Shown here piece by piece: positions 20,428-45,984 of a stretch of 46,150 nt of DNA. Numbering within the stretch: the stretch's first letter is position 1; each line of letters opens with the position of its first letter. Made by a program: the position numbers and the translations under genes. The DNA comes from Escherichia phage vB_EcoD_SU57, in sequence record MT511058.1; one strand, 5' to 3'. A model generated the notes under the pieces. It was not told where the DNA came from. It searched no databases and saw nothing but the letters and a program-made list of their open reading frames with translations.

Positions 20428-20453
20428 GGTCAATCGAAAGATTGGCCTTTTTT
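20428..20453 (+). terminator. rho-independent terminator (GGTCAATC GAAA GATTGGCC plus T-run)
   Basis: hairpin plus T-run followed by ATTGGAGA RBS of next gene. Confidence 0.6.
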
Positions 20454-20465
20454 ATTGGAGATAAA

Positions 20466-25275: not shown

Positions 25276-26238
25276 TTAGTAGAAGTTTGGGATAAATGGA
25301 AGTGCCATTGATATGTTCGTGTCGAAAGGGAACTGAGCGCCAGTCTGGGTTGAATAGTTGCCTATTACAGAACCAGGAGCAGCCCTAACTGAGCCTCCAT
25401 ACATGCAAACCCCCTTGTATCGTAAGTTGTTATACCCTCCTGTAACTCTAGTCACAGCGCCGCATCTAAGCAGCGGGAAGAATCCACCATTTATTGACTG
25501 GTATCCATTATTGATCTGAATGAATCCACCAAGAACAAATGGTCGCCTAACGCTCGAAAAAACAATCTGACCAGAGCTGTTTGACATTGTAAGTCCGGGT
25601 CCAGCTAGTGGTGGTTCATTCCTGAATATCACCAACTGAACGTAAGTACTTGCCGCAACATCATCTGTACCTCCGTAGGTTATATCCCTACACCATATTG
25701 TTGATCCATCTGATTCAAGTGATACGTTTGGATTATCCCACTTGCCGAATGGTATTCCGCTAACTGGTAGCGATGCTGCACCGTTAACCTGTATGCCCCC
25801 AACCCAGGCCGCAGACATTAGCCGCGAGTTGCTTGATATAGCAAGGAAATCAGTTGAGTTCTCAACAAGTATTCCAGGACTTGATGAGGATGAAGCCGGT
25901 AGTATCTCAAAGCAATTACCTGCAAAGTCAATTATTCGACCATTAGCACCATTGAAGTTACTGAGCGTTATCCTACCAGTGCCGTCATTTACCTTTTGAA
26001 ACCCGTTCATGTAATAAACTTCGGGTATAACATCGTAAGCGTCAACGTGGACTGCTTTCGTTGGTAGGCAGAAAGCCGTAGAGCCAGGAGACATTGTCAA
26101 TCCAAAATCCCACGAACTTGCTGGTGTTGAAAGTCCATTGGTATTTATTGATCCAGTCACAGCGGGGGCCCTTAATCCTGCCGTGATTTCCATCGCTGGC
26201 CTTCCGTCATTCAGGTCTATTAGAATACCCTGCGGCAT
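25276..26238 (-). CDS. putative receptor-binding protein (320 aa, Gly/Ser/Asn-rich)
   Basis: reverse-strand gene directly downstream of gpJ-like gene, translationally coupled to lipoprotein gene (TAATG overlap); start at ATG 26238. Confidence 0.4.
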   Translation of the reverse strand: MPQGILIDLNDGRPAMEITAGLRAPAVTGSINTNGLSTPASSWDFGLTMSPGSTAFCLPTKAVHVDAYDVIPEVYYMNGFQKVNDGTGRITLSNFNGANGRIIDFAGNCFEILPASSSSSPGILVENSTDFLAISSNSRLMSAAWVGGIQVNGAASLPVSGIPFGKWDNPNVSLESDGSTIWCRDITYGGTDDVAASTYVQLVIFRNEPPLAGPGLTMSNSSGQIVFSSVRRPFVLGGFIQINNGYQSINGGFFPLLRCGAVTRVTGGYNNLRYKGVCMYGGSVRAAPGSVIGNYSTQTGAQFPFDTNISMALPFIPNFY

Positions 26239-26483
26239 TATTTCCACTCCTTACTTCCGTGATCAGCTACTGACCCACCGTAACCGCCACCGACCTTGCT
26301 TTCAATTCCAGCGTAGCGAATATCAACCTCACCCGCCGGAACAACTACACCGCCTTTCCACTTAGACACGCACACGCCGTTTGCTTGCGTTGCACACCAA
26401 CCATCCGGGCGAGGACCTGAAGAACAGCCCACAATCATGATTGCTGCTGCTGCGATGATTGCTGATTTGATTAATTTATTCAT
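26238..26483 (-). CDS. small lipoprotein, putative superinfection-exclusion protein (Cor/Llp-like role)
   Basis: signal peptide plus lipobox IVGC, two Cys in the mature part, paired with putative RBP gene. Confidence 0.5.
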
Positions 26484-26523: not shown

Positions 26524-26569
26524 ATAATACAACCGTCAGTGAGGAATGTCTTTAGCTATTCGTGCTATT
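26524..26569 (-). promoter_or_regulatory. box (reverse orientation, AATAGCACGAATAGCTAAAG) with TATTAT hexamer at 23 nt
   Basis: upstream of the lipoprotein gene. Confidence 0.45.
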
Positions 26570-27228: not shown

Positions 27229-27426
27229 ATGAAGGCTTTTATAGACATAAATAAGTCACCATACAACGACGAATCAGATCCAGAGGTAAGAATAAGGATA
27301 AAATTCGAAACTGGAAGAGAGATAAACATAACAACAACATGCTCTGGTATATCAAAAGCTATTATGGGATGCAGTGAAATCCCTGTAGATGTATCACTTA
27401 GAAACGTAGAGGTTAAGATAAAATGA
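27229..27426 (+). CDS. hypothetical protein (65 aa)
   Basis: ORF with AAGGAA RBS. Confidence 0.5.
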   Translation: MKAFIDINKSPYNDESDPEVRIRIKFETGREINITTTCSGISKAIMGCSEIPVDVSLRNVEVKIK

Positions 27427-28388
27427 CTTTCAGAGTTTACACACGAGAGGAACTAAGCAATGAGTCTTACCACTCCGAGACTGAACACATCTCCGGTAGC
27501 TCACTTGTTGAGATTATCCAGGGTTCTCCTGCGAAGTGGAAATTTAAGCAGCGAAATAATGATAGCAAGGCGCTTAAATTCGGAACGCTTAGTCACACGT
27601 ACATCCTGGAAGGTGACATGTTTGATAAAGAATACCTTCGAGCTACAGACCTTGACGCGATTGAAGGCTTAATTACAAGCCAGACAGGTTTAGCTTCAGC
27701 ACTTAAAAAAGTTGGTGTAGCTGGAACGTCAGGGAAGGGCTATAGCGAGCTTGTAGAGATGATGTATCGCTCCAGTGAGGATTGGCCTGTTAAATGGTTA
27801 ATTGAGCAACAAGATAGCTCTCAGGCGCTTGTGGAGGGCAAGGAGCTAGTTAGCGCATCAGATTACGACAAGGTTGTCTCGATGCGCGAGGTTCTTTGCA
27901 ACATTCCGGCATACAACGCAATAGTGAATAGTGAGACGGCGCAGAAAGAGTTATCAATCTTCGGTGAGATTCTTGGTATCGGAGTGAAGATTCGAATCGA
28001 CCACGTTGATGTTGTTGATGGTGTTGTCAAGATGACAGATTACAAAACGACCGCCGACGCAAGCCCGGAAGGATTCGGTAAGTCTGCATTCAATCACGGC
28101 TACCTTGCAAAAATGGCACTTCAGCGCGATCTGTTTGTGAAAGCATTTAACGAGAAGCGCAAGGTTGTTGTAGGATTGCTGGCGCAGGAGAAGGTGGAGC
28201 CATACCTACCAATGCTGTACACCTTGACGGATGAGCAGCTTCGAATCGGTCGCTTGCAGTATCTTGAGGCGTTGGCTACTTACAAGAAGTGCAAAGAGTT
28301 GGATATCTGGCCTGGCTACTCGAACGGCATTGCAGAGCAAGAATTGATGATTCCTGAGTGGGCTATTAAGCAGTACAAGGAAATCTAA
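27423..28388 (+). CDS. PD-(D/E)xK family exonuclease (recombination exonuclease, putative)
   Basis: RIDHVDVVDG...DYKT nuclease-like motifs; adjacent to Erf-like and SSB genes. Confidence 0.6.
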   Translation: MTFRVYTREELSNESYHSETEHISGSSLVEIIQGSPAKWKFKQRNNDSKALKFGTLSHTYILEGDMFDKEYLRATDLDAIEGLITSQTGLASALKKVGVAGTSGKGYSELVEMMYRSSEDWPVKWLIEQQDSSQALVEGKELVSASDYDKVVSMREVLCNIPAYNAIVNSETAQKELSIFGEILGIGVKIRIDHVDVVDGVVKMTDYKTTADASPEGFGKSAFNHGYLAKMALQRDLFVKAFNEKRKVVVGLLAQEKVEPYLPMLYTLTDEQLRIGRLQYLEALATYKKCKELDIWPGYSNGIAEQELMIPEWAIKQYKEI

Positions 28389-28432
28389 ATAGCACTAATC
28401 GATAAAGGCAAAATTAAAAGGTGGGGTATGAT
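28389..28432 (+). promoter_or_regulatory. box variant ATAGCACTAATCGATAAAG plus TATGAT at 22 nt
   Basis: fixed phasing; box directly follows stop of the exonuclease gene. Confidence 0.5.
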
Positions 28433-29624: not shown

Positions 29625-31958
29625 TTAACCTATTTTAGTGTAAGTCCATTGGTATGTTGCAGTGCCCTGGGCAGTTATCCCGACAGTTCTTCCACTTACA
29701 TCCATTGAAGTGAAGGCGCCAGTTTTTGTAATTGTTATTGATGATGACGTACCATCAAAAAGAACATCAGCAATTACACTATAGTTAGGCCCTGCACCAG
29801 TAACCCAGGTCGAAACCTTGTATAAACCTGCGTTGTTTGGCAACTCAAAAAGACCAGCTGAAACATTAGCCTGAACAGCCATAGCACCCTTTCCGGTGTA
29901 TACGCCGTCAGTTTTAAGTCCTAATGATGAATATGTTTGCTTATAACCGCCAACAATTATTCCACCCATTGGTTCAGTAAACCAGTTCACATTACCCTGG
30001 CTAACAACCGATACCGCAGGAGCACCACCCTTAGCTGACTGGAACCTGCCGCTTAAAATGTCAATTCTAGATGCTGAGTCCTGGGCGTAGATAGTTACAG
30101 GGTATCCACCAGTTCCAGTGTAAACCAAGCCGTCATTTCCAATGTCATCTTCTGAAGAGTCAATAATGACATGAGAAGTTCCAGATGCCTTGATGTACGA
30201 AACAACTCCACCAGAACCGCCTCCTGTTGTTCTAACTTCGTTCTTCCATGATGTTAGACCTGAAATTCTGCCGTTTGAGTTATTAAACCTAATTAGGCAA
30301 CAGTCTTGCGAACCGTTGGTGTTAATGATGTTACCCTCAACATCCATGCCTAAAATGTTTACGCTATGACTGTTAATGAAGTCAATCCCAGCCCCGCCGT
30401 AAGAGCCTGATGTTGATGATATATCACTTGCATCCATTGCACAGTTAATCATCGTAACGCTCATTACCGAACCAAACTCATAAGGTGAAACGCAACCTGA
30501 TGCATAACAAGTCTCAAGCAATATCGTAGTTCCGGTCGCCTTGATGAATCCAGTTTTGCAATTCCTGGCCCAAACATTCTGCAACTTTGTCTGGTATGTT
30601 CCAGTGGTGTCAGTGTAGCAACCCCATGCGCCATGTACCGTGCAATCCTTGATGCATGAATTTTCTAGCCCTGTAGATGATCCAACATTAGAAACGAAGT
30701 TAAATGCTATCTTTTGATCATTACCTGATGCTAGGGTAGGCGTGTCTCCTGGATTATAAAAAATGTAAAGACCTTCAATAAATATTTGATACATTCTTAT
30801 GTTTTGTGCATCACCCTGAACCAGTGCAAAAAGGTTAATGTTCCCATCAACTGAGATGAATGTTTGCGCCCTGTTTATTTGGCTTGTCCCCTCACCAATA
30901 ATTCTCGTGCTGTTGCCAATCCTTACAGTCCTGTTAATAAACATAAATCCTTTTGGTATGTATACCGTTTTGCCAGTATTAACCGCCGCCTGAAGCGCAA
31001 CTGCGTCAAGTGACTCGTTAAGGTTTGATGCAAACGGATAAACAAACCGTGCAGCCTCAATTGTCGAGAATTTAGATGATAGCGGAACTAAAGTGCCATT
31101 GTTTGTAGCACCAAAATCCATGACGTTAACAAAGTCACCAAGTTTTGATTCCACACTTCTAACTACTGATGATATATTATTCAGCTTGAAGTTAATCATT
31201 GATGAGCCGTTATCATTCTCAAGATTTTTTAGAACCCTTCCGCTGGAAAGGAGCCTCCAGCCAGTATCATCATCTATACCGCCGGTTCCTTCTGGAGTTG
31301 ATCCTTGCGGGACAACCTTAGGGAATGCTCCAGACCACACATAAACAGAAGAGTTCTCAATGTCTATGATTTGCTGAGAATCACCCTGAAGAGTAACGCC
31401 ACCTTGAAAGCTACCAACTAAAGCTCCTGAAACTGATGCTGCTGCACTCTGAGCAGTGCTTGCAGAGTTGCTTGCAGACAATGCGGAACTAGAAGCGGAA
31501 TCCTTGTCACTCGCAACCTGGGCGGCATCATTTGAAACCTGCGCACCAATTGAAATTACTTCACCATACTGCGTGTTAACCTGCGAAACCTTTGTGCTAA
31601 AGTCATTTGCATCAAAGTTTTTGAAAGCATCAACAGCATCTGAAACCTCAGTTTCACGTGACTGATAGTAACGAAGAGTTTCCGCAACATCCTGAGCTAG
31701 CCCCTGAACGGTAATTCCATCATGCGCAAGGATGGCGTAACCAGTTCCAGCAGGAACAGTTTCGGAGTTAGGGTTGTAAACATTAATCTGCGTATCGCTG
31801 ATAATTTCTGAGATGGTGTAAATCTGTACTGGTTCAGTTTTAAATACAATGGTTGCACCTACACGAATCAGTGTAAGAGGTGCTTTCCATGTTGTCCCGA
31901 CGCCAGTCACCTCACCACTTGCTGCTAGAGAAGCTGTTCCTGAGTCATAAATTGCCAT
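29625..31958 (-). CDS. lateral tail fiber / tailspike-like protein (777 aa)
   Basis: N-terminal fiber-anchor-like region and Ser/Ala-rich linker, long beta-rich C-terminal domain; start at ATG 31958 after GGAG. Confidence 0.6.
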   Translation of the reverse strand: MAIYDSGTASLAASGEVTGVGTTWKAPLTLIRVGATIVFKTEPVQIYTISEIISDTQINVYNPNSETVPAGTGYAILAHDGITVQGLAQDVAETLRYYQSRETEVSDAVDAFKNFDANDFSTKVSQVNTQYGEVISIGAQVSNDAAQVASDKDSASSSALSASNSASTAQSAAASVSGALVGSFQGGVTLQGDSQQIIDIENSSVYVWSGAFPKVVPQGSTPEGTGGIDDDTGWRLLSSGRVLKNLENDNGSSMINFKLNNISSVVRSVESKLGDFVNVMDFGATNNGTLVPLSSKFSTIEAARFVYPFASNLNESLDAVALQAAVNTGKTVYIPKGFMFINRTVRIGNSTRIIGEGTSQINRAQTFISVDGNINLFALVQGDAQNIRMYQIFIEGLYIFYNPGDTPTLASGNDQKIAFNFVSNVGSSTGLENSCIKDCTVHGAWGCYTDTTGTYQTKLQNVWARNCKTGFIKATGTTILLETCYASGCVSPYEFGSVMSVTMINCAMDASDISSTSGSYGGAGIDFINSHSVNILGMDVEGNIINTNGSQDCCLIRFNNSNGRISGLTSWKNEVRTTGGGSGGVVSYIKASGTSHVIIDSSEDDIGNDGLVYTGTGGYPVTIYAQDSASRIDILSGRFQSAKGGAPAVSVVSQGNVNWFTEPMGGIIVGGYKQTYSSLGLKTDGVYTGKGAMAVQANVSAGLFELPNNAGLYKVSTWVTGAGPNYSVIADVLFDGTSSSITITKTGAFTSMDVSGRTVGITAQGTATYQWTYTKIG

Positions 31959-31981: not shown

Positions 31982-32025
31982 ATAGCACGAATTGCTAAAG
32001 TGGATTGTAGCATCTTTGAGTCATA
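31982..32025 (+). promoter_or_regulatory. perfect consensus box ATAGCACGAATTGCTAAAG on + strand, pointing away from adjacent reverse-strand tail fiber gene; weak hexamer GTCATA at 22 nt
   Basis: only copy oriented against its neighbouring gene. Confidence 0.4.
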
Positions 32026-33026: not shown

Positions 33027-33500
33027 TTACTCTTTAGCTTTTCGTGCTGCTTCGTTAGCGGCCTTAATCTTGCGCCATGATCGACACTCTGGCTTGGTGG
33101 CTAATTCAGCCTCAGTTACCACACGCAGCATGTGACGCTTTTTGCAACGCAGCGTAAGAGGCTTGCCATTACCGTCGAATTGCAGATCTGGTCGGCAGAA
33201 TGTTGCGCGAAAACCTTCTCCAGTTCGTTTGTAGTAGTTGTGCGAAAGCTGAGCACCACGTGCAGAAATCATACCACGATTAAACCATTCTTCTACAGTC
33301 TGGGGCGTTACCTTTAACTGCTTTGCGATATTCGCCTTTGTACCGAAGAAATCAAGGACAATCTCCAGCCGTGCGCGTAATCCAGCCCTTACTTCATCCT
33401 TTAAAACGTAGTAGCCTGAAGGTCGTTTACGTTGTTTTTTGTCTTTAGTGCGGATGGTTCCATTGTTCCCGTTGATTGTTCTCTTGTCGACTGTATTCAT
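33027..33500 (-). CDS. HTH DNA-binding protein (putative transcription regulator), basic
   Basis: helix-turn-helix-like segment IAKQLKVTPQTVEEWFNRG; Lys/Arg-rich termini. Confidence 0.5.
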   Translation of the reverse strand: MNTVDKRTINGNNGTIRTKDKKQRKRPSGYYVLKDEVRAGLRARLEIVLDFFGTKANIAKQLKVTPQTVEEWFNRGMISARGAQLSHNYYKRTGEGFRATFCRPDLQFDGNGKPLTLRCKKRHMLRVVTEAELATKPECRSWRKIKAANEAARKAKE

Positions 33501-33511: not shown

Positions 33512-33556
33512 AATAGCATTTTTTGTTAAAAGTCATTCCGATTTGATGGTAGTATT
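33512..33556 (+). promoter_or_regulatory. box variant AATAGCATTTTTTGTTAAAAG upstream of helicase gene (weak hexamer)
   Basis: same variant as the reverse copy at 42428; divergent region with regulator gene. Confidence 0.4.
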
Positions 33557-33601: not shown

Positions 33602-35596
33602 ATGTTGCCTATCGAGAAGCTGGTTGCCAACTTCGATAAAGAAAGAATTAAACAGATTCAAAAATATTATCAGTTTGGAGAGATAACCCCTTACGAGTTC
33701 CAGTGCGTTACATTTGATGCAATTGGAAAGGCCATTGGAAAGTACGAGGCTCCATTTATCGCGGACCTTTCCGTGTCTGCGGGTAAGACAATCATTCTGG
33801 CTATGATTGGTAAGCGCATGGAGCAGCTTGGGCTTCCTTACATGGTTCTTTCTCGCCAGTCAGAAATTATCAGCCAGAACTCGGAGGAACTTCGCAATTT
33901 CGGCATCCGTAACAGCGTCTATTGCGCTGGCCTTAACGTTAAATCAGTTTACTACCCAACCATAGTTGCCAGTGAGGGTACGGCAGCTAACGGCTTATTT
34001 AAGGGTCTTGGTGACTATGTTCCGGCAGTTATCGCTATCGATGAATGTCACATGCTTGATGCTATGGATATCGTTGAAGCCGAGGAGAACGAAGAAACAT
34101 TTGAGCAAATGAGCACAAAGAAAGGTGAGATGGTATTTAAGGATGGTGTTAATACCGGGTTGCTTGGCACTGGTCGCGCGCAGTACACGCTAATCATTAC
34201 CGAGATGAAACGTCGTTGTCGTGAGAAGTACGGGCGAGAGCTTCGTATATTCGGTCTTACTGGCAGCCCATATCGCAACAACGACCACATAGTCGTTAGT
34301 AATCCTAATATCCGTGGTTTCTGGCGCAAAACAATTATTCAGGTACCGACCAATTACCTGGTTGATTTGGGGTTCGTTGTACCAACAGTTTACGGTGAAG
34401 TTGGTGATTTGGGCTATGACCTTGCTGAGTTTACGCCAGATGGCTCTGACGGGATTAAAGACTTCACGAAGAAAGACTTAAACGCAATGGAGGAGAAGAT
34501 TCACCAAAACCAATCTATGACACAAAAGATTATGCAATTTGCAGCCAAGTTCATGGAGACAAGGAACGCGGCACTTGTTACCTGTTCTGGTAAGCGTCAT
34601 TGCGAGGAAGCAGCAGCAGCGCTTCCTGAGGGTGTGACCTGGGCTATAGTAACTGACTCTACAGGTGAGAAAAAGCGCCGTGAGATTCTAGCCGATGCAT
34701 ATGAGGGTAAGTATAAATTCATATTTCAGATCGGCTGCCTCACAACCGGCGTGAACGTCCCACCCTGGGATACATCAATCATTCTGCGTAAAGTTGGTAG
34801 TATCACTCTTCTTATTCAGCTTTTGGGGCGAGGCATGCGAATTCTTAAGAAGAAGCATAAAGAAATGGGAATGATTAAGGAAGATCACGTGGTACTAGAC
34901 TTCGCTGGCACCCTTGATGATATGGCGGAATTGTACTTTGACCCAATCATAGAGGAGGTGCAGGACCAGAAGTTTAAATCATCCCGCAAAGGCGGCGATG
35001 AGCCGAGGGTTTGTCCAGCATGCAGCTATGAGAACTCTCCGTTCGCCCGTCGATGCAATAACGTAATTAATGGGAAGCGTTGCGAGCATTTTTTTACATT
35101 TCGCTTGTGTGAAGATATAGAGGACCCGCAGACAAAAGTTATTATTAAGAAAGGTTGTAGTGAGAAGAATGATATTGCTGCTAAAAACTGTCGATGCTGC
35201 GGCGAGATGCTAATAGACCCGAACGCAAAGCTATCTGGGAAAATGTATCGTAAAGGCGACTGGTTGCGAGTCTATGACTTTAAGATTGGATTAACAAAGA
35301 ATCAAACAGGGATTGTTGCCTCATACGAGGTCATGGCTCATAGTGGAGATAGGTTCCGAGCCTATGAGTCGTTTTTCCCAGAGTCAGACCATCGCGTTTG
35401 CTCTGTAAAATGGAAAGCATTTTGCTCGGCTCACATAGAGAACAGGACTGAGGCTTTTAGAATTGGCAGGTTGCGTAATGCTAAGATGATTATGACTAAT
35501 GCTCACCTTTTCCGTGCGCCATTAAGGATTACACACCGTAAGAACCAGAAGTCTCAAGATATTATCGCAAACAAATCTTTTACTATGGAGGATTGA
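33602..35596 (+). CDS. superfamily 2 helicase with C-terminal Cys-rich zinc-finger region
   Basis: Walker A SAGKT, DECH box, QLLGRGMR motif VI, multiple CxxC pairs. Confidence 0.8.
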   Translation: MLPIEKLVANFDKERIKQIQKYYQFGEITPYEFQCVTFDAIGKAIGKYEAPFIADLSVSAGKTIILAMIGKRMEQLGLPYMVLSRQSEIISQNSEELRNFGIRNSVYCAGLNVKSVYYPTIVASEGTAANGLFKGLGDYVPAVIAIDECHMLDAMDIVEAEENEETFEQMSTKKGEMVFKDGVNTGLLGTGRAQYTLIITEMKRRCREKYGRELRIFGLTGSPYRNNDHIVVSNPNIRGFWRKTIIQVPTNYLVDLGFVVPTVYGEVGDLGYDLAEFTPDGSDGIKDFTKKDLNAMEEKIHQNQSMTQKIMQFAAKFMETRNAALVTCSGKRHCEEAAAALPEGVTWAIVTDSTGEKKRREILADAYEGKYKFIFQIGCLTTGVNVPPWDTSIILRKVGSITLLIQLLGRGMRILKKKHKEMGMIKEDHVVLDFAGTLDDMAELYFDPIIEEVQDQKFKSSRKGGDEPRVCPACSYENSPFARRCNNVINGKRCEHFFTFRLCEDIEDPQTKVIIKKGCSEKNDIAAKNCRCCGEMLIDPNAKLSGKMYRKGDWLRVYDFKIGLTKNQTGIVASYEVMAHSGDRFRAYESFFPESDHRVCSVKWKAFCSAHIENRTEAFRIGRLRNAKMIMTNAHLFRAPLRITHRKNQKSQDIIANKSFTMED

Positions 35597-35597
35597 T

Positions 35598-36017
35598 ATG
35601 AATATTACAGATAAGGTCGATTACATTGAATTTTACCCTGGCCCGGTTAAGTCATGCCCTAAGGAGGATGACGAACAAATCTTTTGCTCTGATTGGGTTA
35701 AGTATAACTACCCAGATATGGTATTTTTCCATTGCGTGAATGAGGGAAAGAAAACCATTGGTCAAGCAAGAAAAGACCAGGCTAAGGGGCTTCTAAAAGG
35801 CGTATCAGACTGTATGTTTCTTATTCCTGAATCACTTCGAGGTAAGTATCCTTTCGGGGCTATAGAGCTAAAGAGGGCTGGCAAAACTCAAGCAAGTCCA
35901 GTCAGCGAAGAACAGAAAGCATTTCTGAAAAGTGTAGTGGAATCAGGCGGTTTCTCGGCAGTCGCCTACGGACGTGAGGGTTTTCTTGCAGCATTCAAAG
36001 AAATGATTTCAAAATAG
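35598..36017 (+). CDS. VRR-NUC domain nuclease
   Basis: D...ELK PD-(D/E)xK-like core in about 140 aa protein directly after helicase. Confidence 0.65.
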   Translation: MNITDKVDYIEFYPGPVKSCPKEDDEQIFCSDWVKYNYPDMVFFHCVNEGKKTIGQARKDQAKGLLKGVSDCMFLIPESLRGKYPFGAIELKRAGKTQASPVSEEQKAFLKSVVESGGFSAVAYGREGFLAAFKEMISK

Positions 36018-36057
36018 CACGAATTGCTAAAGACGATTTTAAAATATGGGGTATAGT
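36014..36057 (+). promoter_or_regulatory. box ATAGCACGAATTGCTAAAG plus TATAGT at 22 nt
   Basis: perfect consensus; overlaps VRR-NUC stop. Confidence 0.55.
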
Positions 36058-36288: not shown

Positions 36289-36443
36289 GAGAGGCAATCG
36301 TAAACTTTAAAACCGGAGAGGATTCAAAATTCTTCTTCAATACATTCTCACAATACATTGACAAGTTTGTTTTCGTAATTGATGGTGGATGCGAGGTTGT
36401 TGTTCCTATTAAGCTAATTGATGGGTTGGGAGTATCAGAATAA
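36285..36443 (+). CDS. small hypothetical protein (52 aa)
   Basis: start-stop overlap with neighbours; below track cutoff. Confidence 0.3.
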   Translation: MREAIVNFKTGEDSKFFFNTFSQYIDKFVFVIDGGCEVVVPIKLIDGLGVSE

Positions 36444-36664
36444 TGGCAACCTTTACATTTGAGCACCAATGGGAAGTATTTAAGTTAATGACGTTGCAGG
36501 AATTGCTTAAGGCTGGTTATAAAAAGCATGCTCCATCACTAGCTGAATGCCTGGATATGAGCTTTGAAGAAGACTATCTGAACACCAATATCGAAACATG
36601 GCGAGACCGAATGGTTGCTGATATCGAAGAAATGAAAAAAGATTGCCCGGAGGATTTCTTATGA
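36443..36664 (+). CDS. hypothetical protein (73 aa)
   Basis: ORF, TAATG overlap. Confidence 0.45.
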   Translation: MATFTFEHQWEVFKLMTLQELLKAGYKKHAPSLAECLDMSFEEDYLNTNIETWRDRMVADIEEMKKDCPEDFL

Positions 36665-36858
36665 TTAACGAAAGGCCTTTTGTTGTTACATTTAAGCCAA
36701 GAAACAAACCCAGAATGGAGATTGACGAATACTTACTAAAATACGGAAATAGCTATTTTGTTCTTGAGATCTCAGCCTACTCGGATAGGTATATTGTTCG
36801 CAACGATGCTGGTATGGTTGTTAGTGTTTCAAAATTGGATGTTGAGATTGTGAGATGA
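36661..36858 (+). CDS. hypothetical protein (65 aa)
   Basis: ATGA overlap with upstream gene. Confidence 0.45.
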   Translation: MINERPFVVTFKPRNKPRMEIDEYLLKYGNSYFVLEISAYSDRYIVRNDAGMVVSVSKLDVEIVR

Positions 36859-37046
36859 TTACTGCGACTTGCGTGCGTGCAAACGGCTCGTTTACTTTAT
36901 TTGAGGATTACGAATTCAACTTTCATTCAGATGAGGTAACAGTATTGAGCGATGATGGGTGCTATTGGTTCGTTAGTTATCAAGGTGATGGTTATTACGG
37001 TTGCAGAGACGCGGAAGGAAAAGAAGTTAGTTTCTTAGTCGAGTAG
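36855..37046 (+). CDS. hypothetical protein (63 aa)
   Basis: ORF ending at TAG inside box. Confidence 0.45.
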   Translation: MITATCVRANGSFTLFEDYEFNFHSDEVTVLSDDGCYWFVSYQGDGYYGCRDAEGKEVSFLVE

Positions 37047-37086
37047 CACTTTTTGTTAAAGCTCAAATCCAGGGATGGATTATATT
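37043..37086 (+). promoter_or_regulatory. box variant GTAGCACTTTTTGTTAAAG plus TATATT at 22 nt
   Basis: fixed phasing. Confidence 0.5.
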
Positions 37087-37242: not shown

Positions 37243-37487
37243 TAGTAGAAACAGGACGAGCAGCCGTATGGGCGCATTGTGGTGAAGCTGGATTGCAAGA
37301 TGACATTAAGCAGATATCTAGATTCTTTGATATAAAAGATATCAGCGTCGTGTTCAATGGCAAATTCTCTTACATGGATGAGCGCCCAAGAAAATACGTA
37401 AGAGTTAAGCCAGGCGTCAGGATTGATGTTAACGAGTTCCTTAAATCTGAGGGATTCAAGTTTAAGATAACGAAGCCTAAGGATTGA
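37239..37487 (+). CDS. hypothetical protein (82 aa)
   Basis: ATGA overlap with upstream small ORF. Confidence 0.4.
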   Translation: MIVETGRAAVWAHCGEAGLQDDIKQISRFFDIKDISVVFNGKFSYMDERPRKYVRVKPGVRIDVNEFLKSEGFKFKITKPKD

Positions 37488-37489
37488 GT

Positions 37490-37741
37490 ATGTTTGGTTT
37501 AGATTTTCAGCCAGAGCATTACGATTTAGTATATGGTCAAAGTGGTGCAAAGTTTAGAGCGATACCTATTGCTGATTGGTTCCCTCCTGATTATGTGGAT
37601 GTGAACGCAAAAACTAAAGACGGGAAGTGGGTTCAGATTTACTACTCCCCAGCATGCGGAAACCTTTGTATGACTGACCTTGATCAGAAATTAGCAATTA
37701 GTGCGGAAGTTATCGACTACTGGTTGAAAGAAGTTGAATGA
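37490..37741 (+). CDS. hypothetical protein (83 aa)
   Basis: ATG 37490 after GGATTGAG. Confidence 0.45.
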   Translation: MFGLDFQPEHYDLVYGQSGAKFRAIPIADWFPPDYVDVNAKTKDGKWVQIYYSPACGNLCMTDLDQKLAISAEVIDYWLKEVE

Positions 37742-37824: not shown

Positions 37825-38955
37825 ATGGCAACTGCAAAAATCACTAACGAACAATTGCGCGAAGAACTGGCTAATGGCATGACCAACAAGGCAATAGCAG
37901 AGAAGTATGGAATGAACATTCGCAACGTTGAATTGCGTCGCAGTAAGCTGGCAAAATCAGGCGAGCTTCATGGAAACCCTGGTATCAAGAAGTTAGTCCC
38001 TGACGGTTATATGGTCAAAGGAACTTCAACGATGATTGACGCGGCGGGTAATGAAAAGCTTCGCTGGGTTAAAACCTCTGTAGATAATGAGCGCCTTGAG
38101 GTTTTAATGGAGCAAGCTAGAGAGGCATTTTGTTCTGAGTTGCCAAAAGCAGATGCGGTCAGCCACTCAGGCAACGAAGTTAACTCTGAATTAATGACTC
38201 TTTACCCTATTTTCGATATCCATATCGGCATGATGGCGCATCGCCATGAATCTGGTGAGAATTATGACACTAACACGGCAGAGAAATTAATGGAATCATA
38301 TTTCGACCATGCAATTTCTGTATCACCTGCGTCAGAGAAAGCCGTTGTTTTAGTTGGCGGCGACTTCCTTCACTCTGACGGATTGGAAGCTGTAACCCCA
38401 GCGAGCGGACACTGCCTTGATCAGGATAGCCGGTATGCTAAGTTAGTTTATGTTGCGATTCGATCGATTCGTGCCGCGGTAGAGAAGATGCTTAAGAAGC
38501 ATAAGAATGTCGAGATTCAGATTATAGAGGGAAATCATGACCAAAGCGGCATGATCTGGCTTCGCGCTGCAATGGCTGCATTTTATGAAAACGAGAATCG
38601 CGTGTTTGTTGATACCAGTCCAGCAATCATGCACAAGACGCGATTTGGCTCAACATTACTTGGTTACACGCATGGTCACACAATGAAGAAAGCCGAGGGT
38701 CGACTCGCAGCAATGGCGACCGACTACCGCAAAGACTTTGGTGAGTGTGAGTTTGTTTACTGCCACTCCGGGCATTTTCACCATGCAACTGTTACAGAGT
38801 GCACACTTGGTATTGACGAGGTTCACCCAGCACTGGCCAGTAAGGACGCATATGCCGCACGTGGAGGTTGGCGCTCATACCGTCAAGCGGCTGCGATAGT
38901 TTACCACAAGAATTTTGGCGAGGTTGGTCGCCATATTTACCGCCCAGGCATGTAA
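37825..38955 (+). CDS. metallophosphoesterase (calcineurin-like) with N-terminal HTH domain
   Basis: D.H, GGDFLH, GNHD, GHTH metal-binding motifs; N-terminal HTH-like segment. Confidence 0.65.
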   Translation: MATAKITNEQLREELANGMTNKAIAEKYGMNIRNVELRRSKLAKSGELHGNPGIKKLVPDGYMVKGTSTMIDAAGNEKLRWVKTSVDNERLEVLMEQAREAFCSELPKADAVSHSGNEVNSELMTLYPIFDIHIGMMAHRHESGENYDTNTAEKLMESYFDHAISVSPASEKAVVLVGGDFLHSDGLEAVTPASGHCLDQDSRYAKLVYVAIRSIRAAVEKMLKKHKNVEIQIIEGNHDQSGMIWLRAAMAAFYENENRVFVDTSPAIMHKTRFGSTLLGYTHGHTMKKAEGRLAAMATDYRKDFGECEFVYCHSGHFHHATVTECTLGIDEVHPALASKDAYAARGGWRSYRQAAAIVYHKNFGEVGRHIYRPGM

Positions 38956-38999
38956 ATAGCACATTTTGTTAATAAAGCCTCAAAGGATTGAGGCAAAAT
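38956..38999 (+). promoter_or_regulatory. box variant ATAGCACATTTTGTTAATAAAG (weak hexamer)
   Basis: box overlaps stop codon region. Confidence 0.35.
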
Positions 39000-39029
39000 G
39001 AATAAACGATAACGAGATGAGGAGTTATA

Positions 39030-39503
39030 ATGATTTACGTATTTGATATTGACGGAACTATAGCTAATAATGAGCATAGAAATCACCTTTTACCATCCAG
39101 TGACCTTCACTTGACTTCAAGTTGGAAGTATTACAATAAAGCCTGTTCTGGAGACTCACCAATAATCCCAATGATAAACATGATGAACAAACTTGCGGAA
39201 TTATGTCCTGTTTACATAATGACATCCAGAAGTGATGAAGTTGAATGGAGAACCCTTGAGTGGCTTCAGGATAATGAGGTTGAGTATGATTCTATATACA
39301 TGAGAAGTCGATATGACAACCGAAAAGATTACAAAATAAAAGAGGAATGGCTTAATGAAATCAGTGGTGGCGATAAAGGAAGTGTGGTTATTTTTGAAGA
39401 TAACCCACAAGTAATTAAGCACCTAAGAAGTTGCGGATACACCGTTATGGCTGTATGTGAATATGAAGAACTACCTAAAGATTGCGAATCTCACGGAGAA
39501 TGA
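39030..39503 (+). CDS. HAD-superfamily phosphatase (polynucleotide 3-prime-phosphatase-like)
   Basis: N-terminal DIDGT motif. Confidence 0.55.
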   Translation: MIYVFDIDGTIANNEHRNHLLPSSDLHLTSSWKYYNKACSGDSPIIPMINMMNKLAELCPVYIMTSRSDEVEWRTLEWLQDNEVEYDSIYMRSRYDNRKDYKIKEEWLNEISGGDKGSVVIFEDNPQVIKHLRSCGYTVMAVCEYEELPKDCESHGE

Positions 39504-39505
39504 AA

Positions 39506-40060
39506 ATGACTAAATTATTTATCCTTAATGGCCCCGCTGGAGTTGGAAAGGACACTATAGCGGATATCATGGTTGAGACTGGTGTAGCCAAAGAAAAGGT
39601 ATCATTCAAGTCACCAATGTTTAACGTTGCAAAAGGAATGCTATCAAGCGATGAATTTGATGGATTCATCAAGAATTACGACAATAGAGACTATAAGGAA
39701 TCGCCTCATGGATTTCTTGGCGGTATGACAGTTCGTGAATTTATGATTTGGATTAGCGAGTCTGTAATGAAGCCAGTCTTTGGTGATGATATTTTCGGTA
39801 AAAGGCTAGCCAAGTCACTTGGTGATGGTTGCTACATTTGCGCTGATGGTGGATTTGCTAGCGAGATTAAGCCACTGATCGACGCTGGTGTTGAGGTCAC
39901 GTTAATCAGATTGCATAGGGCAGGGTACACATTTGATGGCGATAGTCGCTCATACATTCACGGGGTGTGCGCAAGAGAAATTGATGTTCGTGTTGTTGAT
40001 TGTGATATTGATGGAACATCAGCATTGGTAAGGCACGTAATAAATAGCACGAATTGCTAA
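39506..40060 (+). CDS. P-loop kinase (nucleotide or polynucleotide kinase-like)
   Basis: Walker A GPAGVGKDT; start at ATG 39506 after GGAG; C-terminus NSTNC encoded by box. Confidence 0.55.
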   Translation: MTKLFILNGPAGVGKDTIADIMVETGVAKEKVSFKSPMFNVAKGMLSSDEFDGFIKNYDNRDYKESPHGFLGGMTVREFMIWISESVMKPVFGDDIFGKRLAKSLGDGCYICADGGFASEIKPLIDAGVEVTLIRLHRAGYTFDGDSRSYIHGVCAREIDVRVVDCDIDGTSALVRHVINSTNC

Positions 40061-40087
40061 AGATAATAATAAAAACTGAGTTATCAT
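40044..40087 (+). promoter_or_regulatory. box ATAGCACGAATTGCTAAAG plus TATCAT at 22 nt
   Basis: perfect consensus, embedded in kinase gene 3 prime end. Confidence 0.5.
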
Positions 40088-40128
40088 TAACACATCGAAA
40101 CGAGATGAAACAAAAGAGGAAGCACAAA

Positions 40129-40305
40129 ATGACTAAAATGATTTATTGCACCAAAAACAACTCCAAGACGCTGCCATTTACAGTTAACCAGCCGTACAAT
40201 GCAGAGTATCAAGGTGACGGATACTACAAGATTTATGGCGACGATATGACGTGGATTTTAGCGCCGATTGATGGTTCGCTGGTTGAATTTATTATCGCAG
40301 ACTAG
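40129..40305 (+). CDS. hypothetical protein (58 aa)
   Basis: ATG after conserved CATCGAAACGAGA leader and AGAGGAAG RBS. Confidence 0.45.
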   Translation: MTKMIYCTKNNSKTLPFTVNQPYNAEYQGDGYYKIYGDDMTWILAPIDGSLVEFIIAD

Positions 40306-41520: not shown

Positions 41521-41853
41521 GCTAAATAACTCGTCGTCAGCCATTGTTCCTATATTCATCATCTCTTTTATGTACTTGCTTTCATAACCGTTAAGTGCCT
41601 CGAAGTTAAACCCAAATGGCCTATTCAAACTCCCCTTGCTAACAAACTCCCCGCACTTACCATCAATGTAACCCATACTAAGCATCTTCGCGCAGAACTC
41701 TTTTGAAGCCGCGCTGCAAAACTCTCGATGTGATAAACCCGCTGCCTTGCTGAACCTCTCAGAGTCCTTATGCTGGTATATGAATCTCGCCAAATGCTGG
41801 CGAGTGAAGTATGAATATGACTCGCAGAACTTAAATATATCGAGAAGAAACAA
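41518..41853 (-). CDS. hypothetical protein (111 aa)
   Basis: ORF; possible TTG start after GGGAGG. Confidence 0.45.
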   Translation of the reverse strand: MFLLDIFKFCESYSYFTRQHLARFIYQHKDSERFSKAAGLSHREFCSAASKEFCAKMLSMGYIDGKCGEFVSKGSLNRPFGFNFEALNGYESKYIKEMMNIGTMADDELFS

Positions 41854-41855
41854 AG

Positions 41856-42386
41856 CTACCTCCCGTGATTATCATGGTAAGAAAGCGAGATCTCAGCAGA
41901 TTTTCTTGCGCATGCTGCATCAAAAATATTATCGTAATAACCAAGACTGGTAGTTTTCCCATTGACCCCTATCTGCGAAAAGTATTTTCCACTCTTATTT
42001 ATTGTTACGCCAGATATTCCAGTCTTATTCCTCTTATTCATTGATAGGTTCTTCTGGTTGCATTGCCTTGACACCAGCCTTAGATTTTCAACTCTGTTGT
42101 CATTTCTTATGTGATTAATGTGATCAACTTGCATTCCTTCCGGTATACTTCCATTAATCATCTCCCATATAACCCTATGAGCCATATATCTTTCCCCATA
42201 TATACCAAGAAGTATATAACCACAACCTTTATCATCAAGGCATCCAGCTACCTTGCCAGCGTATTGGGTGTTGCACTTATTCATTGTTCTAACCTGAGAG
42301 AAGTGACTTAAAGGCCTTATTTTCCATATCAGTTTTCCATTTTTGTAATAAAAATATTCATGCCAGTTCATTTCCGCTAACTCCAT
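41856..42386 (-). CDS. HNH homing endonuclease with AP2-like DNA-binding domain
   Basis: HNH motif VDHINHIRNDNRVENLR followed by AP2-like ISGV...GYY..AA.AR; start ambiguous (42386 or 42371). Confidence 0.8.
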   Translation of the reverse strand: MELAEMNWHEYFYYKNGKLIWKIRPLSHFSQVRTMNKCNTQYAGKVAGCLDDKGCGYILLGIYGERYMAHRVIWEMINGSIPEGMQVDHINHIRNDNRVENLRLVSRQCNQKNLSMNKRNKTGISGVTINKSGKYFSQIGVNGKTTSLGYYDNIFDAACARKSAEISLSYHDNHGR

Positions 42387-42400
42387 CGTGTTTGCCTATG

Positions 42401-42448
42401 CAAACAATAACAAAAGCCCACTAGGGGCTTTTAACAAAAAATGCTATT
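42401..42448 (-). promoter_or_regulatory. box variant (ATAGCATTTTTTGTTAAAAG, reverse) fused to a hairpin terminator, between DUF3987-like and HNH genes
   Basis: box directly after stop at 42454; stem AGCCC/GGGCT follows; no clear -10. Confidence 0.4.
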
Positions 42449-42453
42449 TATCA

Positions 42454-44037
42454 TCACCCAAGCAATCTCGGATTAATGTAAACTTTATCACCAATCAGGC
42501 ACGTGTAGTTTTTCTCGTCAAGCATTGGCAGCAAGTGATCTTTAATCTTCGTCATTACCCCCGCCTGGGCTTCGAAAGGTTTAACCTTGCGCGCCGCCTC
42601 GTATAGGGAGCGAATACCTACTACGCCCTTCCCATTTTTGCCTTGCTTGATCAGTATGTCAATCAGCTTGTTCATCTCTGCACTGTCACCAGCGTGACCA
42701 GCGGCGTTAGCAGATGAAAGGTAAGTTTTGCTCAGTTCATTAAATATAATTACAGCCTCCTGCATGGTATCAAGCTCAATCTCCCTGGACTTCCGCGGAC
42801 TCCCGCCGTTAGGGTTGAACCAGTTACGAACAGTATGAAGAACAGCCGCAATCCTGATGGCCTGTTTATCAAACTTACCCAGCGCGCCTCGCAACATTGT
42901 ATGTGAATACTTCCCGCCATCAGCAAGGTGAGGTTCCATCTCCTGACGTGCTCGGTTGAGATACTTCATCGCTGAGTTGCTTACTGTCAGCTTAACATCT
43001 TGCTCATTCATTATTTCGTGAACCAGGCGGAAGTAGTCAGCCTTTAGCCCACCATCAATAGGTTCGTAAGTTGAGTCTCCATTTTCATCAACGAATACAC
43101 GCTCGCCCAGGAATGACTTTTCACGCACCAGCAGAAAACGTTCCGATACACCGATACCTCGCGCACCAGCATTCATGATTGCGTTTATTGTCTCATCTTG
43201 CGCAATTACAGAGATGCATCCCATAGCGACGAAACTCATGTTGTTTTCTGCGTTCGCACGCGCAATGGACACGTTACCAGCATCCCATGCTTTCAGCACA
43301 AGCTCGCTGTTCGTTTTCTTCGAGCCATCACCATAGGTCATACCTAGCAGAGAGTTCACGCTCGTTGCTTCATCAGAGATAACTGCGAAGTTGCCCTGGC
43401 GGTTGTTTATTCGCGCAAGACCTTCAGGCGTCGTATCTGATACTGGAAATACGATATCGCAAAGTTTCTCGAGTTTTTCCTCTAGTTCCTCTTTCTCTTC
43501 GAAGAGAGAAGCCATTTCTGAAGGTGATTTCTCCTGCTTCATCTCTTTGGATAATGCAGATAGTTTAGCCATGATCTTTTTGCGCTCACGCTTCCGCAAC
43601 TCATTCAGTCGCTCAGTCTCAGCAATCATTGGAGCAATTGAAAGTGAGTTGATTGCTGATTTACCTGTCGATGGCGGCTGACTGGTTACGACGTATAGAG
43701 AGGTCGGTTGCTGGGTTCCGTGATACTCAACAGTAAATCGCCCCAGCATGGAGGCAGAAATACACCCCAGAAAGTGCATATAAGCTGAAGACTCTGGAAA
43801 TTGAACCGAACGAGCAATATTGGCTGACAGTTTACCAACAACGTCAATATCATTGCCGAGTGAGATTACCGGGTATTTGTCATTTGCTGCATCAATCTCG
43901 ACCGGAGCCTTCCAGAATGATTGGGACTGGCGATAGCCATTGGCATTAATGGCGACTCGCAGTGGCGGGAGGTTGTCTGCGGCAGCAATGGCCATAACCT
44001 GTTCAACAGATAGTTTATCTTCGTTGAAATCGAACAT
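42454..44037 (-). CDS. DUF3987-like P-loop NTPase (putative replication or primase-associated protein)
   Basis: Walker A-like QPPSTGKS and Walker B-like FAVISDEA; 527 aa; termini shared with 1005-1529. Confidence 0.55.
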   Translation of the reverse strand: MFDFNEDKLSVEQVMAIAAADNLPPLRVAINANGYRQSQSFWKAPVEIDAANDKYPVISLGNDIDVVGKLSANIARSVQFPESSAYMHFLGCISASMLGRFTVEYHGTQQPTSLYVVTSQPPSTGKSAINSLSIAPMIAETERLNELRKRERKKIMAKLSALSKEMKQEKSPSEMASLFEEKEELEEKLEKLCDIVFPVSDTTPEGLARINNRQGNFAVISDEATSVNSLLGMTYGDGSKKTNSELVLKAWDAGNVSIARANAENNMSFVAMGCISVIAQDETINAIMNAGARGIGVSERFLLVREKSFLGERVFVDENGDSTYEPIDGGLKADYFRLVHEIMNEQDVKLTVSNSAMKYLNRARQEMEPHLADGGKYSHTMLRGALGKFDKQAIRIAAVLHTVRNWFNPNGGSPRKSREIELDTMQEAVIIFNELSKTYLSSANAAGHAGDSAEMNKLIDILIKQGKNGKGVVGIRSLYEAARKVKPFEAQAGVMTKIKDHLLPMLDEKNYTCLIGDKVYINPRLLG

Positions 44038-44067: not shown

Positions 44068-44112
44068 ATTATATCAACGACCTCTTATAATTCATTATCA
44101 ATTTGTGCTATT
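44068..44112 (-). promoter_or_regulatory. box variant (ATAGCACAAATTGATAA, reverse) plus TATAAT at 22 nt
   Basis: fixed phasing upstream of DUF3987-like gene. Confidence 0.5.
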
Positions 44113-44227
44113 AGTTGTTCTTAATCCAATTTAGACACATCCACAATCCAGCGCCATAAAATGCAATCTTAAGAATTTCAGCCAACAAAAGGATAATAAA
44201 GTAACCTCCACCAAGTAAATCAATCAT
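44111..44227 (-). CDS. small hydrophobic peptide (38 aa), possible membrane protein
   Basis: ATGA overlap with upstream gene; stop directly before box. Confidence 0.25.
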   Translation of the reverse strand: MIDLLGGGYFIILLLAEILKIAFYGAGLWMCLNWIKNN

Positions 44228-44813: not shown

Positions 44814-44876
44814 TTTGTTTGCCTCTGTCTGTTTCGTTTCTATATAAAGAAAATGCCGCATCCTTGCGACTCTGCT

Positions 44877-45068
44877 TTAACATAAAATGTTATTTTCTAC
44901 AATAAGATCAAACTCCTCAATCTGATAATAATCAGGACCATAACCATTATCTATATCGATACCTAAGAGTCTATTCTTTTCAAGTTCAGCTAGTTCCTCT
45001 GTATCAAAAACACCACAAATTTCAAAGCCGTCATAGTTAGTGTAAGCATTAAGTATGTAAACTTTCAT
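44877..45068 (-). CDS. hypothetical acidic protein (63 aa)
   Basis: ORF with TGGAGAT RBS downstream of box promoter. Confidence 0.5.
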   Translation of the reverse strand: MKVYILNAYTNYDGFEICGVFDTEELAELEKNRLLGIDIDNGYGPDYYQIEEFDLIVENNILC

Positions 45069-45094: not shown

Positions 45095-45139
45095 ACTATA
45101 CAACAAAAGCCCCGATTGGCTTTAGCAATTCGTGCTATT
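45095..45139 (-). promoter_or_regulatory. box (reverse, AATAGCACGAATTGCTAAAG) plus TATAGT at 22 nt
   Basis: perfect consensus, fixed phasing. Confidence 0.55.
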
Positions 45140-45286
45140 GCGCGCCTTTTCTATCGCCTTAAGCATAATCTCGTGACTTTCGAGCAAGTCCTCTCGAAAC
45201 CAGTCACCGCAAGGCCAGCCCTTTCCGCTGTATGAGCTGATGACCTCAAGATCGAAATAATTTATCTCAGATGGCAGGAGCATCAT
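45122..45286 (-). CDS. small hypothetical protein (54 aa) ending NSTNC
   Basis: GAGGTGAA RBS; C-terminal five residues encoded by the box. Confidence 0.3.
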   Translation of the reverse strand: MMLLPSEINYFDLEVISSYSGKGWPCGDWFREDLLESHEIMLKAIEKARNSTNC

Positions 45287-45734: not shown

Positions 45735-45911
45735 TCAAAATGGAATGCAGTGATTACAACCTTCACCATTGCAACAGAAATCTTCATCTTCTGACTGGAA
45801 TTGCTTAGCCAAATCAATGTCTAACTTTCCGCGCAACACAAGTTCAGTGTAATCTTCGTTCAGCCCAATCAGTGCGCATTCGTGGCGTAATTCATCTTTG
45901 TCAATCTTCAT
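45735..45911 (-). CDS. small Cys-rich protein (58 aa, CCNGEGCNHC)
   Basis: ORF after GAGGGTATAG RBS downstream of box promoter; below track cutoff. Confidence 0.35.
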   Translation of the reverse strand: MKIDKDELRHECALIGLNEDYTELVLRGKLDIDLAKQFQSEDEDFCCNGEGCNHCIPF

Positions 45912-45938: not shown

Positions 45939-45984
45939 ACTATATCCTCACCAGATAGATATGTCTTTAGCAAAAAGTGCTATT
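45939..45984 (-). promoter_or_regulatory. box variant (AATAGCACTTTTTGCTAAAG, reverse) plus TATAGT at 23 nt
   Basis: outermost promoter of the reverse-strand block. Confidence 0.5.

Follow-up and report, generated by a model that had tools for sequence, protein, structure and literature searches.

The stretch of DNA analyzed here (the window) is a 46,150-bp sequence of Escherichia phage vB_EcoD_SU57 (record MT511058.1) with 44% G+C, and it represents a virulent Rtp/T1-like siphophage genome (Drexlerviridae, subfamily Braunvirinae). We examined a repeated 19-nt element of this genome, hereafter the box, with a focus on the copy at positions 40044-40062 on the plus strand (ATAGCACGAATTGCTAAAG). 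This copy lies on the 3' end of a P-loop kinase gene (39506-40060, +; Walker A motif GPAGVGKDT), for which the same length is annotated in relatives. The box encodes the end of this gene, namely its last five codons (NSTNC) and the stop, which is the TAA at 40058-40060 (box positions 15-17). Downstream, a -10-like hexamer, TATCAT (40082-40087, +), is separated from box position 16 by 22 nt and starts at box position 39. It is followed by a conserved leader, ACATCGAAACGAGA..., which carries a ribosome-binding site (40092-40128, +), with transcription predicted to start near 40094. The box heads the cassette in front of the gene at 40129-40305 (+; DUF7244, T1 gp14-like), the first gene of this cassette, and the lysis genes.

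The 19-mer was found in 13 copies with three or fewer mismatches in the window, with 0 expected from shuffled sequences. A weight-matrix scan, together with a scan demanding a downstream -10-like hexamer, gave about 22 recognizable copies. Each of these 22 copies but one was oriented toward the gene behind it, the exception being a perfect orphan copy at 31982-32000 (+) between two minus-strand genes. Boxes stand before small early-type genes at both arms, recombination genes, the primase gene, both helicase genes and the PNK pair, and they also head the lysis region and two accessory genes within the structural block. The main head and tail operons have no box in front.

The window was compared with ten whole relatives (PCEc3, ACG-M12, FP, Rtp, OzMSK, BEK1-1, ZL19, IME542, TR2 and DTL), which were 75-88% identical to it in the aligned parts. 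The closest database match was vB_EcoS_UALMA_PCEc3 (94.7% identity over 4 kb); many relatives showed 75-90% identity to the window, and none was collinear with it throughout. The 78 gene calls in the window agreed with the annotations of PCEc3, ACG-M12, FP, Rtp and OzMSK. Family-wide counts of junctions refer to non-redundant junctions between an open reading frame (ORF) and a box in 11 genomes and 18 further loci. From IMG/VR, loci surrounding the kinase gene yielded only a small number of close relatives and contributed little to the mapping of breakpoints, and they served as a source of distant kinase-box junctions.

Between the box and the start codon, the sequence is organized as a cassette of about 75 nt, consisting in order of the box, 22 nt, a -10-like hexamer, a conserved leader and the start codon. 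When 21 copies were aligned from box to start codon, they read AAATAGCACnAATTGCTAAAG, a variable stretch, TATAnTTAC, CATCnAAACGAnAnGA and ATG; the leader is CATCGAAACGAGAGG, and the hexamer is of the TATAGT type. The distance from box position 16 to the hexamer was 22 nt in 310 of 384 boxes (29 sequences), and the start of the box was 70-90 nt upstream of the ATG. The median intergenic gap at box junctions was 73 nt, equal to the cassette length. At non-box co-directional junctions the median gap was 2 nt, often with a 4-nt overlap, and the genome is packed throughout. A scan of the window for canonical -35/-10 promoters did not report the box cassettes, which are without a -35 element. Judged from this constant arrangement, the box probably heads the promoter-leader cassette of almost every non-structural transcription unit. 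These cassettes would be active as promoters, with transcription starting at the predicted position. A terminator stem-loop was present only at a few cassettes, for example those of the boxes at 38956 and 42447.

Several other identities of the box were rejected. TTGCTA as a sigma-70 -35 hexamer was ruled out by the 22-nt spacer and by the cassettes being missed in the -35/-10 scan, and an UP element was ruled out because the conserved positions are specific (GCAC, TG, AAA) and not just AT-rich. The 3' half of the box resembles the T4 MotA box (TGCTTtA), but its distance to the -10 hexamer is about 6 bp too long, and no MotA/AsiA-like domain was detected among 50 phage proteins scanned. In an Rfam search of the window, a tRNA was the only match, which leaves a structured-RNA reading of the box without support.

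The overlap of the box with upstream stop codons was the basis of the original prediction, and the TAG stops listed there, at box positions 2-4 of ORFs ending at 1827, 3074, 7983, 36017 and 37046, were all correct. They correspond to the boxes at 1824-1842 (+; TAG 1825-1827, ORF 1609-1827), 3071-3089 (+; TAG 3072-3074, ORF 2814-3074), 7980-7998 (+; TAG 7981-7983, large terminase gene 6412-7983) and 36014-36032 (+; TAG 36015-36017, VRR-NUC gene 35598-36017), and to a variant beginning GTAGCAC at 37043-37061 (+; TAG 37044-37046, ORF 36855-37046). A sixth ORF, 1005-1529, ends in the same way on the box at 1526-1544 (+; TAG 1527-1529). The statement that most copies use TAG did not hold for the window, where TAG-ended ORFs form a plurality (6 of about 22 copies), although TAG was the commonest stop family-wide (91 of 178 junctions). 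Six of the 11 TAG stops in the window were inside boxes. Lysine was the last residue in 54 of the 91 TAG-ended proteins, because the A-rich bases before the box give AAA TAG.

The second stop, the TAA at box positions 15-17, ends both the kinase gene and ORF 45122-45286(-), the latter on a perfect box at 45120-45138 (-; TAA 45122-45124), and both proteins finish in NSTNC, as had been claimed. Likewise, the lipoprotein-like ORF 2370-2633, with a lipobox (LTGC) at its N-terminus, ends RTNW-TAA by way of the variant box ATCGCACGAATTGGTAAAA at 2617-2635 (+; TAA 2631-2633). A weak box at 44875-44893 (-; ATAACATTTTATGTTAAAG) stops 44877-45068(-) at the same positions (NNILC*), and an ORF of uncertain call, 4392-4553, would stop on positions 15-17 of a weak box at 4537-4555 (+), which lies before 4614-4811. 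Among the 178 family-wide junctions, 21 had TAA at 15-17, with protein tails such as NSTNC, NSTNS and DSTNC, 20 had a stop just before the box, and 19 had a TAA straddling position 1. In the window, a TAA stands directly in front of the boxes at 19982-20000 (+; after the minor tail gene 19226-19981), 28389-28407 (+; after the exonuclease VIII gene 27423-28388 and before the Erf-type recombinase gene) and 38956-38974 (+; variant ATAGCACATTTTGTTAATA, after the exonuclease gene 37825-38955). ORF 44111-44227(-) ends TAA-TAG, straddling position 1 of the box at 44093-44111 (-); the helicase gene has its TGA 6 nt upstream of the variant box at 42429-42447 (-), followed by an in-frame TGA TAA; and in the variant box GCGGCACTAATTGCTAAAA at 3670-3688 (+), a TAA on positions 8-10 stops ORF 3536-3679. 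The regulator gene 33027-33500(-) crosses the variant box at 33032-33050 (-) in the sole stop-free frame (AARKAKE*).

Genes therefore abut the box in all three phases, as predicted: at 17 of the 18 window junctions having a co-directional upstream ORF, the stop lay within -8 to +24 of the box start, with a phase split of about 8:5:4. The stop-codon overlap is real, family-wide and far beyond chance. Genes can end on the box in any phase because TAG (2-4) and TAA (15-17) are intrinsic to it and a TAA fits in front, and the upstream gene runs up to or into the box because the genome is packed and leaves no room between the cassette and the gene before it. The idea that the box exists to supply stop codons was not borne out. 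Position 3, the A of TAG, was A in 96% of non-redundant boxes whether TAG was used or not, the T at position -2 that completes a preceding TAA was present in only 35% of copies and so is not conserved, and the genome is compact everywhere. Stops in two frames of an AT-rich 19-mer of such composition are unremarkable in themselves, and the stop triplets coincide with positions fixed by the binding-site consensus described below. These observations point to the stop codons as a by-product of layout, not the purpose of the box.

The original prediction also proposed that the box is a module boundary, a proposal that mosaic breakpoints missing the boxes were to refute. We located breakpoints in chained blastn matches between the window and the ten relatives, taking gaps of at least 50 nt in either genome as events. 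The cassette zone, from -8 to +95 of the box start, makes up 5% of the window, and it contained 56 of 195 breakpoint clusters, compared with 9.7 expected at random (p = 3e-27). With only high-scoring segment pairs (HSPs) of at least 250 nt, 39 of 144 breakpoints fell in cassettes, compared with 7.1 expected (p = 2e-18). An artefact of short cassette-to-cassette HSPs was ruled out, since the enrichment stayed at minimum HSP lengths of 150 and 250 nt. A breakpoint was present at 19 of 21 box junctions and at 37 of 56 other gene junctions (Fisher p = 0.04), and the mean number of genomes broken was 5.6 at box junctions and 2.6 at the others (Mann-Whitney p = 4e-4). This difference held inside the non-structural regions, and in the structural block both box junctions were broken, in a mean of 7.5 genomes, compared with 2.05 at the other 20 junctions. 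Within cassettes, the breakpoints clustered at the 5' edge of the box, just past the box, and at the leader and start codon, and the spacer and -10 hexamer were seldom hit. Breakpoints were thus enriched at boxes, and no refutation was obtained. The cassettes, which are conserved among the genomes, are preferred, not sole, junctions for gene insertion, deletion, replacement and movement.

Individual modules showed how genes change at the boxes. The moron-like cassette at 7980-8389 (+) consists of a box, a predicted promoter and the gene 8053-8385, followed by a terminator at 8408-8429; that at 19982-20457 (+) consists of the box 19982-20000, a predicted promoter, the gene 20054-20407 and a terminator at 20428-20453. 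The segments 7984-8389 and 19982-20457 were each cleanly absent in about half of the ten relatives. In relatives without 19982-20457, the minor-tail gene ends AGT TAA and the next ribosome-binding site follows directly. In Rtp, the stop of this gene is inside a box, with an HNH gene downstream instead; the minor-tail protein ends NQS* in both phages, through AGC TAA before the box here and through TCA TAG-CAC in Rtp. The two accessory genes, 8053-8385 and 20054-20407, are paralogues (38% identity, E = 5e-11) that share the leader TATAGTTACTTCACACAAACGAGAGGAG and are annotated in relatives as virion structural proteins; they seem to be copies of a single moron, one behind the large terminase gene and the other behind the minor tail gene. 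Extra genes in ACG-M12, PCEc3, FP and DTL had box copies on both flanks. The box at 28389 was duplicated around such a gene in FP, and copies of the box at 26550-26568 (-), which lies before 26238-26483(-), flank an extra gene in PCEc3 and ACG-M12.

The PNK module, which comprises two genes (38956-40043), has the box 38956-38974 as its left edge and the focal box on its right, and it was missing in five of the ten relatives (Rtp, ZL19, IME542, DTL and BEK1-1). In four of these five, homology ended 12-16 nt into the box at 38956, and in all five it was back 39-64 nt after the start of the box at 40044, leaving one hybrid cassette. Diverged phosphatase/kinase homologues (41-48% amino acid identity) were found behind a different left-arm box in Rtp, ZL19 and DTL; in Rtp and ZL19, the phosphatase gene is downstream of the cassette of box 2617. 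Kinase orthologues of distant T1-like phages, including TLS (42-52% identity), all end at the box, in three phases: K/R-TAG, W-TAA followed by ATAGCAC, F-TAA-TAGCAC, and NSTNC-TAA. Their C-terminal tails are unrelated and their lengths range from 184 to 205 amino acids. Because the tails are unrelated and the phases vary, the joint between gene and box must have been re-made repeatedly.

The helicase gene and the gene next to it are separated by an inserted HNH endonuclease gene (41856-42386, -; Pfam HNH_3), which is headed by a box of its own at 42447; this cassette (41853-42453, -) was missing in nine of the ten relatives. HNH inserts of the relatives carry a box too, and an inserted HNH gene ends AAA TAG in the next box; homing endonuclease genes of the family seem to travel as box cassettes. 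Across the modules, both patterns were seen, namely a cassette moving with its downstream gene and a cassette staying while the downstream gene changes. The breakpoint pattern fits crossing-over in the cassettes and also the simpler case in which imported genes bring a promoter with them or need one.

The sequence of the box corresponds to the marbox, the site of the host activators MarA, SoxS and Rob, which are monomeric members of the AraC family. The marbox consensus AYnGCACnnWnnRYYAAAY (PMC3709825) was met at 19 of 19 positions in the copies at 1824 and 7980 and at 18 of 19 in the focal copy, and 14 sites with one mismatch or none were found in the window, compared with 0.86 expected. The form derived from chromatin immunoprecipitation, gcannwwntgnnaaa (PMC12052159), had 16 exact sites in the window, compared with 0.93 expected, and 13 of them were boxes. 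Box positions 1, 2, 7, 14 and 15, which the search left unconstrained, agreed with the marbox consensus, and the positions at which the boxes vary (8, 9 and 14) are ones where the marbox is degenerate. Position 10 was nearly always A/T, but A/T was demanded there by the search pattern. In addition, a marbox beside E. coli mdaB (PMC12052159 S2 Table), GCACATTTTGCTAAT, is one base off the core of box 38956, GCACATTTTGTTAAT.

The spacing to the -10 hexamer is that of micF, a class II promoter. Class II marbox promoters carry a forward site that overlaps the -35 element, with its centre at -36 to -55 (PMC12052159). In the transcription complex of Rob at micF, contacts to the GCAC element fall at -47/-45, and sigma region 4 is pushed off the -35 element by Rob (PMC9178005). 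In MG1655 micF (robbox ACAGCACTGAATGTCAAAAC), the first base of the -10 hexamer TAGAAT is marbox position 39, and the hexamer of the phage cassettes begins at the same position. The centre of the phage marbox is predicted at -40; the listed centres are at -41 for rfaY, whose activation by MarA is shown in the same paper, and at -39 for fumC, a known MarA target (PMC12052159). The box would thus be a forward consensus marbox over a missing -35 element, with its centre near -40 in a micF-like class II arrangement, and a host activator of the Mar/Sox/Rob type bound at the box would recruit sigma-70 RNA polymerase. A phage-encoded MarA-like activator was rejected: the MarA query, checked against PDB entry 1BL0, gave 0 tblastn or phmmer matches to a homologue in the window and the ten relatives. 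Among 50 scanned non-structural proteins, none had a domain of the AraC type or of any other activator. Literature searches returned nothing linking marboxes or Mar/Sox/Rob with promoters of T1-like phages or with phage infection, and nothing relevant on transcription starts in Drexlerviridae.

We assign a probability of roughly 0.6 to the full account of the box, in which it is the activator-binding half of the cassette and a host marbox site, overlaps stop codons as a consequence, and is a preferred exchange junction. That a class II marbox is the physiological mechanism is, from motif and geometry, a matter of about even odds. The wider proposition, that Drexlerviridae drive most non-structural genes from about 20 host-activator marboxes per genome and use the same site as stop and module linker, is tentative and falls a little short of an even chance. 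In terms of exchange, morons and HNH genes would travel with their own cassette, and other modules would probably be exchanged by homologous crossing-over in the box or leader. Both the recombination within the cassette and the identity of the binding protein are what we infer here.

Several points weigh against this account. About 70% of breakpoints were outside cassettes, at other gene junctions or inside genes, and some non-box junctions also carry short duplicated ends; the module-boundary idea is partly upheld, with the breakpoint enrichment and the flanked inserts in its favour and with the breakpoints elsewhere, and a pattern that fits two causes, as its limits. The TAG frame accounted for about 110 of about 160 junctions family-wide, with about 20 for each of the other frames. 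Compaction alone does not fully explain this preference, although the excess may be inflated by redundancy among orthologous junctions. The promoter function and the -40 position are predicted from the -10-like hexamer alone. In the box itself, position 19 departs from the marbox Y, conservation at positions 3 and 11 goes beyond what a marbox needs, and there is a 5+5 inverted repeat, TAGCA-N5-TGCTA, which would be a good fit for a dimeric helix-turn-helix protein of the phage. Unstressed cells contain little MarA or SoxS, and their Rob, though plentiful, is reportedly largely inactive without inducers; it would be surprising for a virulent phage to depend on these proteins. As a side observation, the orphan box at 31982-32000, which is conserved in ACG-M12 and ZL19, lies between the primase and side tail fibre genes, and when read on the opposite strand it is just downstream of TACAAT, with the fibre ATG following about 25-40 nt later. 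This placement is as expected for repression, not activation.

The inverted repeat leads to the possibility that the box is the operator of a dimeric Cro/CI-like phage regulator, the product of 33027-33500(-), with the repeat centred near -42. This protein, the homologue of T1 gp23/Rtp52, would activate the cassettes, as lambda CI does at PRM, or shut them off later, and the marbox likeness would be coincidental or reflect a shared site. Such a regulator could also be a second protein at the box and not the sole one. The half-sites are 10 bp apart, and the pairs 2/16, 3/15, 5/13 and 6/12 are complementary, each conserved at 86-100%; for A3 and T15, conservation is higher than a marbox calls for. 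It was the only one of the 50 phage proteins scanned to show a DNA-binding motif; it is conserved in the family, and its own gene overlaps a box. However, this motif is a weak P22_Cro helix-turn-helix match below the curated Pfam threshold. The box as a whole is also asymmetric and always points in the direction of transcription: G4 never varies, whereas its partner, position 14, is C in 60% of copies, and the conserved flanks A0, A1, C7, A17 and A18 have no symmetric partners, yet they are exactly marbox positions. Since an operator for this regulator also leaves the micF-identical spacing unexplained, we regard it as unlikely.

In the strong form of the original prediction, the box would be kept as a linker for recombination and a terminator for any gene, its sequence being selected for stopping translation whichever gene is joined to it, and cassette exchange would be its main function. 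In favour of this are stops in two frames with a TAA often in front for the third, the same gene-box junction in three phases among phages, breakpoints enriched at the box edges and copies flanking inserts. Such a role does not account for the A at position 3 being kept at 96% regardless of TAG use, with the preceding T at only 35%, or for the fixed distance to the -10 hexamer and the start codon, which shows a transcriptional role; moreover, many breakpoints are at the leader end or elsewhere, and two stop frames are unremarkable in an AT-rich 19-mer. This explanation appears very unlikely. Still more improbable, to the point that we give it hardly any weight, is that the boxes are stoperator-like silencing sites or roadblocks to polymerase elongating from upstream. 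The boxes are transcription-oriented and numerous and lie in short intergenic spaces (PMC11447400), and one reverse-oriented orphan lies over a putative promoter. The phage, however, is virulent, with no repressor or integrase module seen in the annotations, and 22 nt to a good -10 hexamer and about 75 nt to the start codon are promoter geometry, which a roadblock does not need.

The remaining boxes of the window are placed as follows. The variant box at 33032-33050 lies before the primase gene, within the 3' end of the regulator gene, and the variant ATAGCATTTTTTGTTAAAA at 33513-33531 (+) is before the helicase gene 33602-35596. The box at 44093-44111 is before the other helicase gene, 42454-44037(-), and coincides with a breakpoint in seven of the ten relatives. 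A further box, at 45965-45983 (-), is before 45735-45911(-).

Changes unconnected with boxes were also observed. Insertions of the relatives occurred at four non-box junctions (window positions 3524-3541, 5835-5851, 36429-36444 and 37479-37492), and at each of these sites 14-18 nt of the window were matched on both sides of the insert; these would be a second kind of junction, not tied to a promoter. The side tail fibre gene (29626-31660, -) had its C-terminal two-thirds replaced in all ten relatives, with intragenic breakpoints, which is ordinary receptor-binding-domain swapping unrelated to boxes. The single tRNA, tRNA-Arg(TCT) at 5504-5581 (+), is surrounded by a box-free region (5217-5605) that is rich in breakpoints.

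T1-like phages are both classic ubiquitous contaminants and phage-therapy candidates. Read as class II marboxes, the boxes offer a concrete mechanism, inexpensive to test, for about 20 promoters in each genome. If true, it would link phage gene expression, including replication, recombination, lysis and accessory genes, to the host antibiotic and stress regulon, and phage development would be responsive to bile salts, salicylate, oxidants or antibiotics. The box also explains annotated proteins with odd shared tails (NSTNC or a terminal lysine) and the excess of amber stops. Furthermore, the idea of regulatory cassettes as shuffling junctions is extended from T4-type myoviruses to a siphovirus family.

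The repeat itself is already known. The 2024 re-annotation of phage TLS described a 21-nt direct repeat, aaATAGCACnnnTTGnTAAAA, at 21 places, transcription-oriented and about 76 nt upstream of start codons; it is also present in T1, Rtp and Rogue1, and its function was left open as stoperator-like, enhancer-binding or UP-like (PMC11447400). Only three ordinary sigma-70-like intergenic promoters were found in the TLS genome (PMC11447400). The window boxes match this consensus, and by sequence, orientation, distance to the start codon and number (about 20 copies per genome) the two are the same element. The TLS paper places the repeats "between genes", without the stop overlap, a link to mosaic breakpoints or a host factor (PMC11447400). 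What is new here is the stop overlap in all phases, the breakpoint enrichment and the proposed class II marbox identity. The class II marbox promoters of E. coli (micF, fumC, rfaY and lpxL) share with the boxes the consensus, the forward orientation and a weak or absent -35 element, and micF also shares the spacing from marbox to -10, the transcription start being a predicted one in the phage. Unlike host marboxes, the putative phage marboxes belong to a virulent phage, number about 20 and are nearer to the consensus than the host sites examined.

The T4-type PeSLs resemble the phage cassettes in being short repeated regulatory units that flank small accessory genes and in coinciding with insertion, deletion and replacement breakpoints between relatives (PMC2839356, PMC4122927). 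A PeSL, however, is a strong sigma-70 promoter with a terminator stem-loop, whereas the phage cassettes are built on an activator-type box, lack a -35 element and for the most part are without a stem-loop, and overlap with the upstream stop codon is a feature of the phage cassettes not described for PeSLs. Lambdoid morons are promoter-gene-terminator units inserted between two genes. The cassettes 7980-8389 and 19982-20457 fit this definition, being precisely present or absent between conserved structural genes, but unlike lambdoid morons they use a family-wide box promoter that also heads replication and lysis genes. The stoperators of mycobacteriophage L5 are binding sites of the phage repressor and have no link to promoters. 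Like the boxes, they are short, asymmetric and oriented, and they occur in many copies in tight intergenic spaces; the boxes differ from them in their fixed distance to the -10 hexamer and start codon, and in belonging to a virulent phage with no annotated repressor or integrase module.

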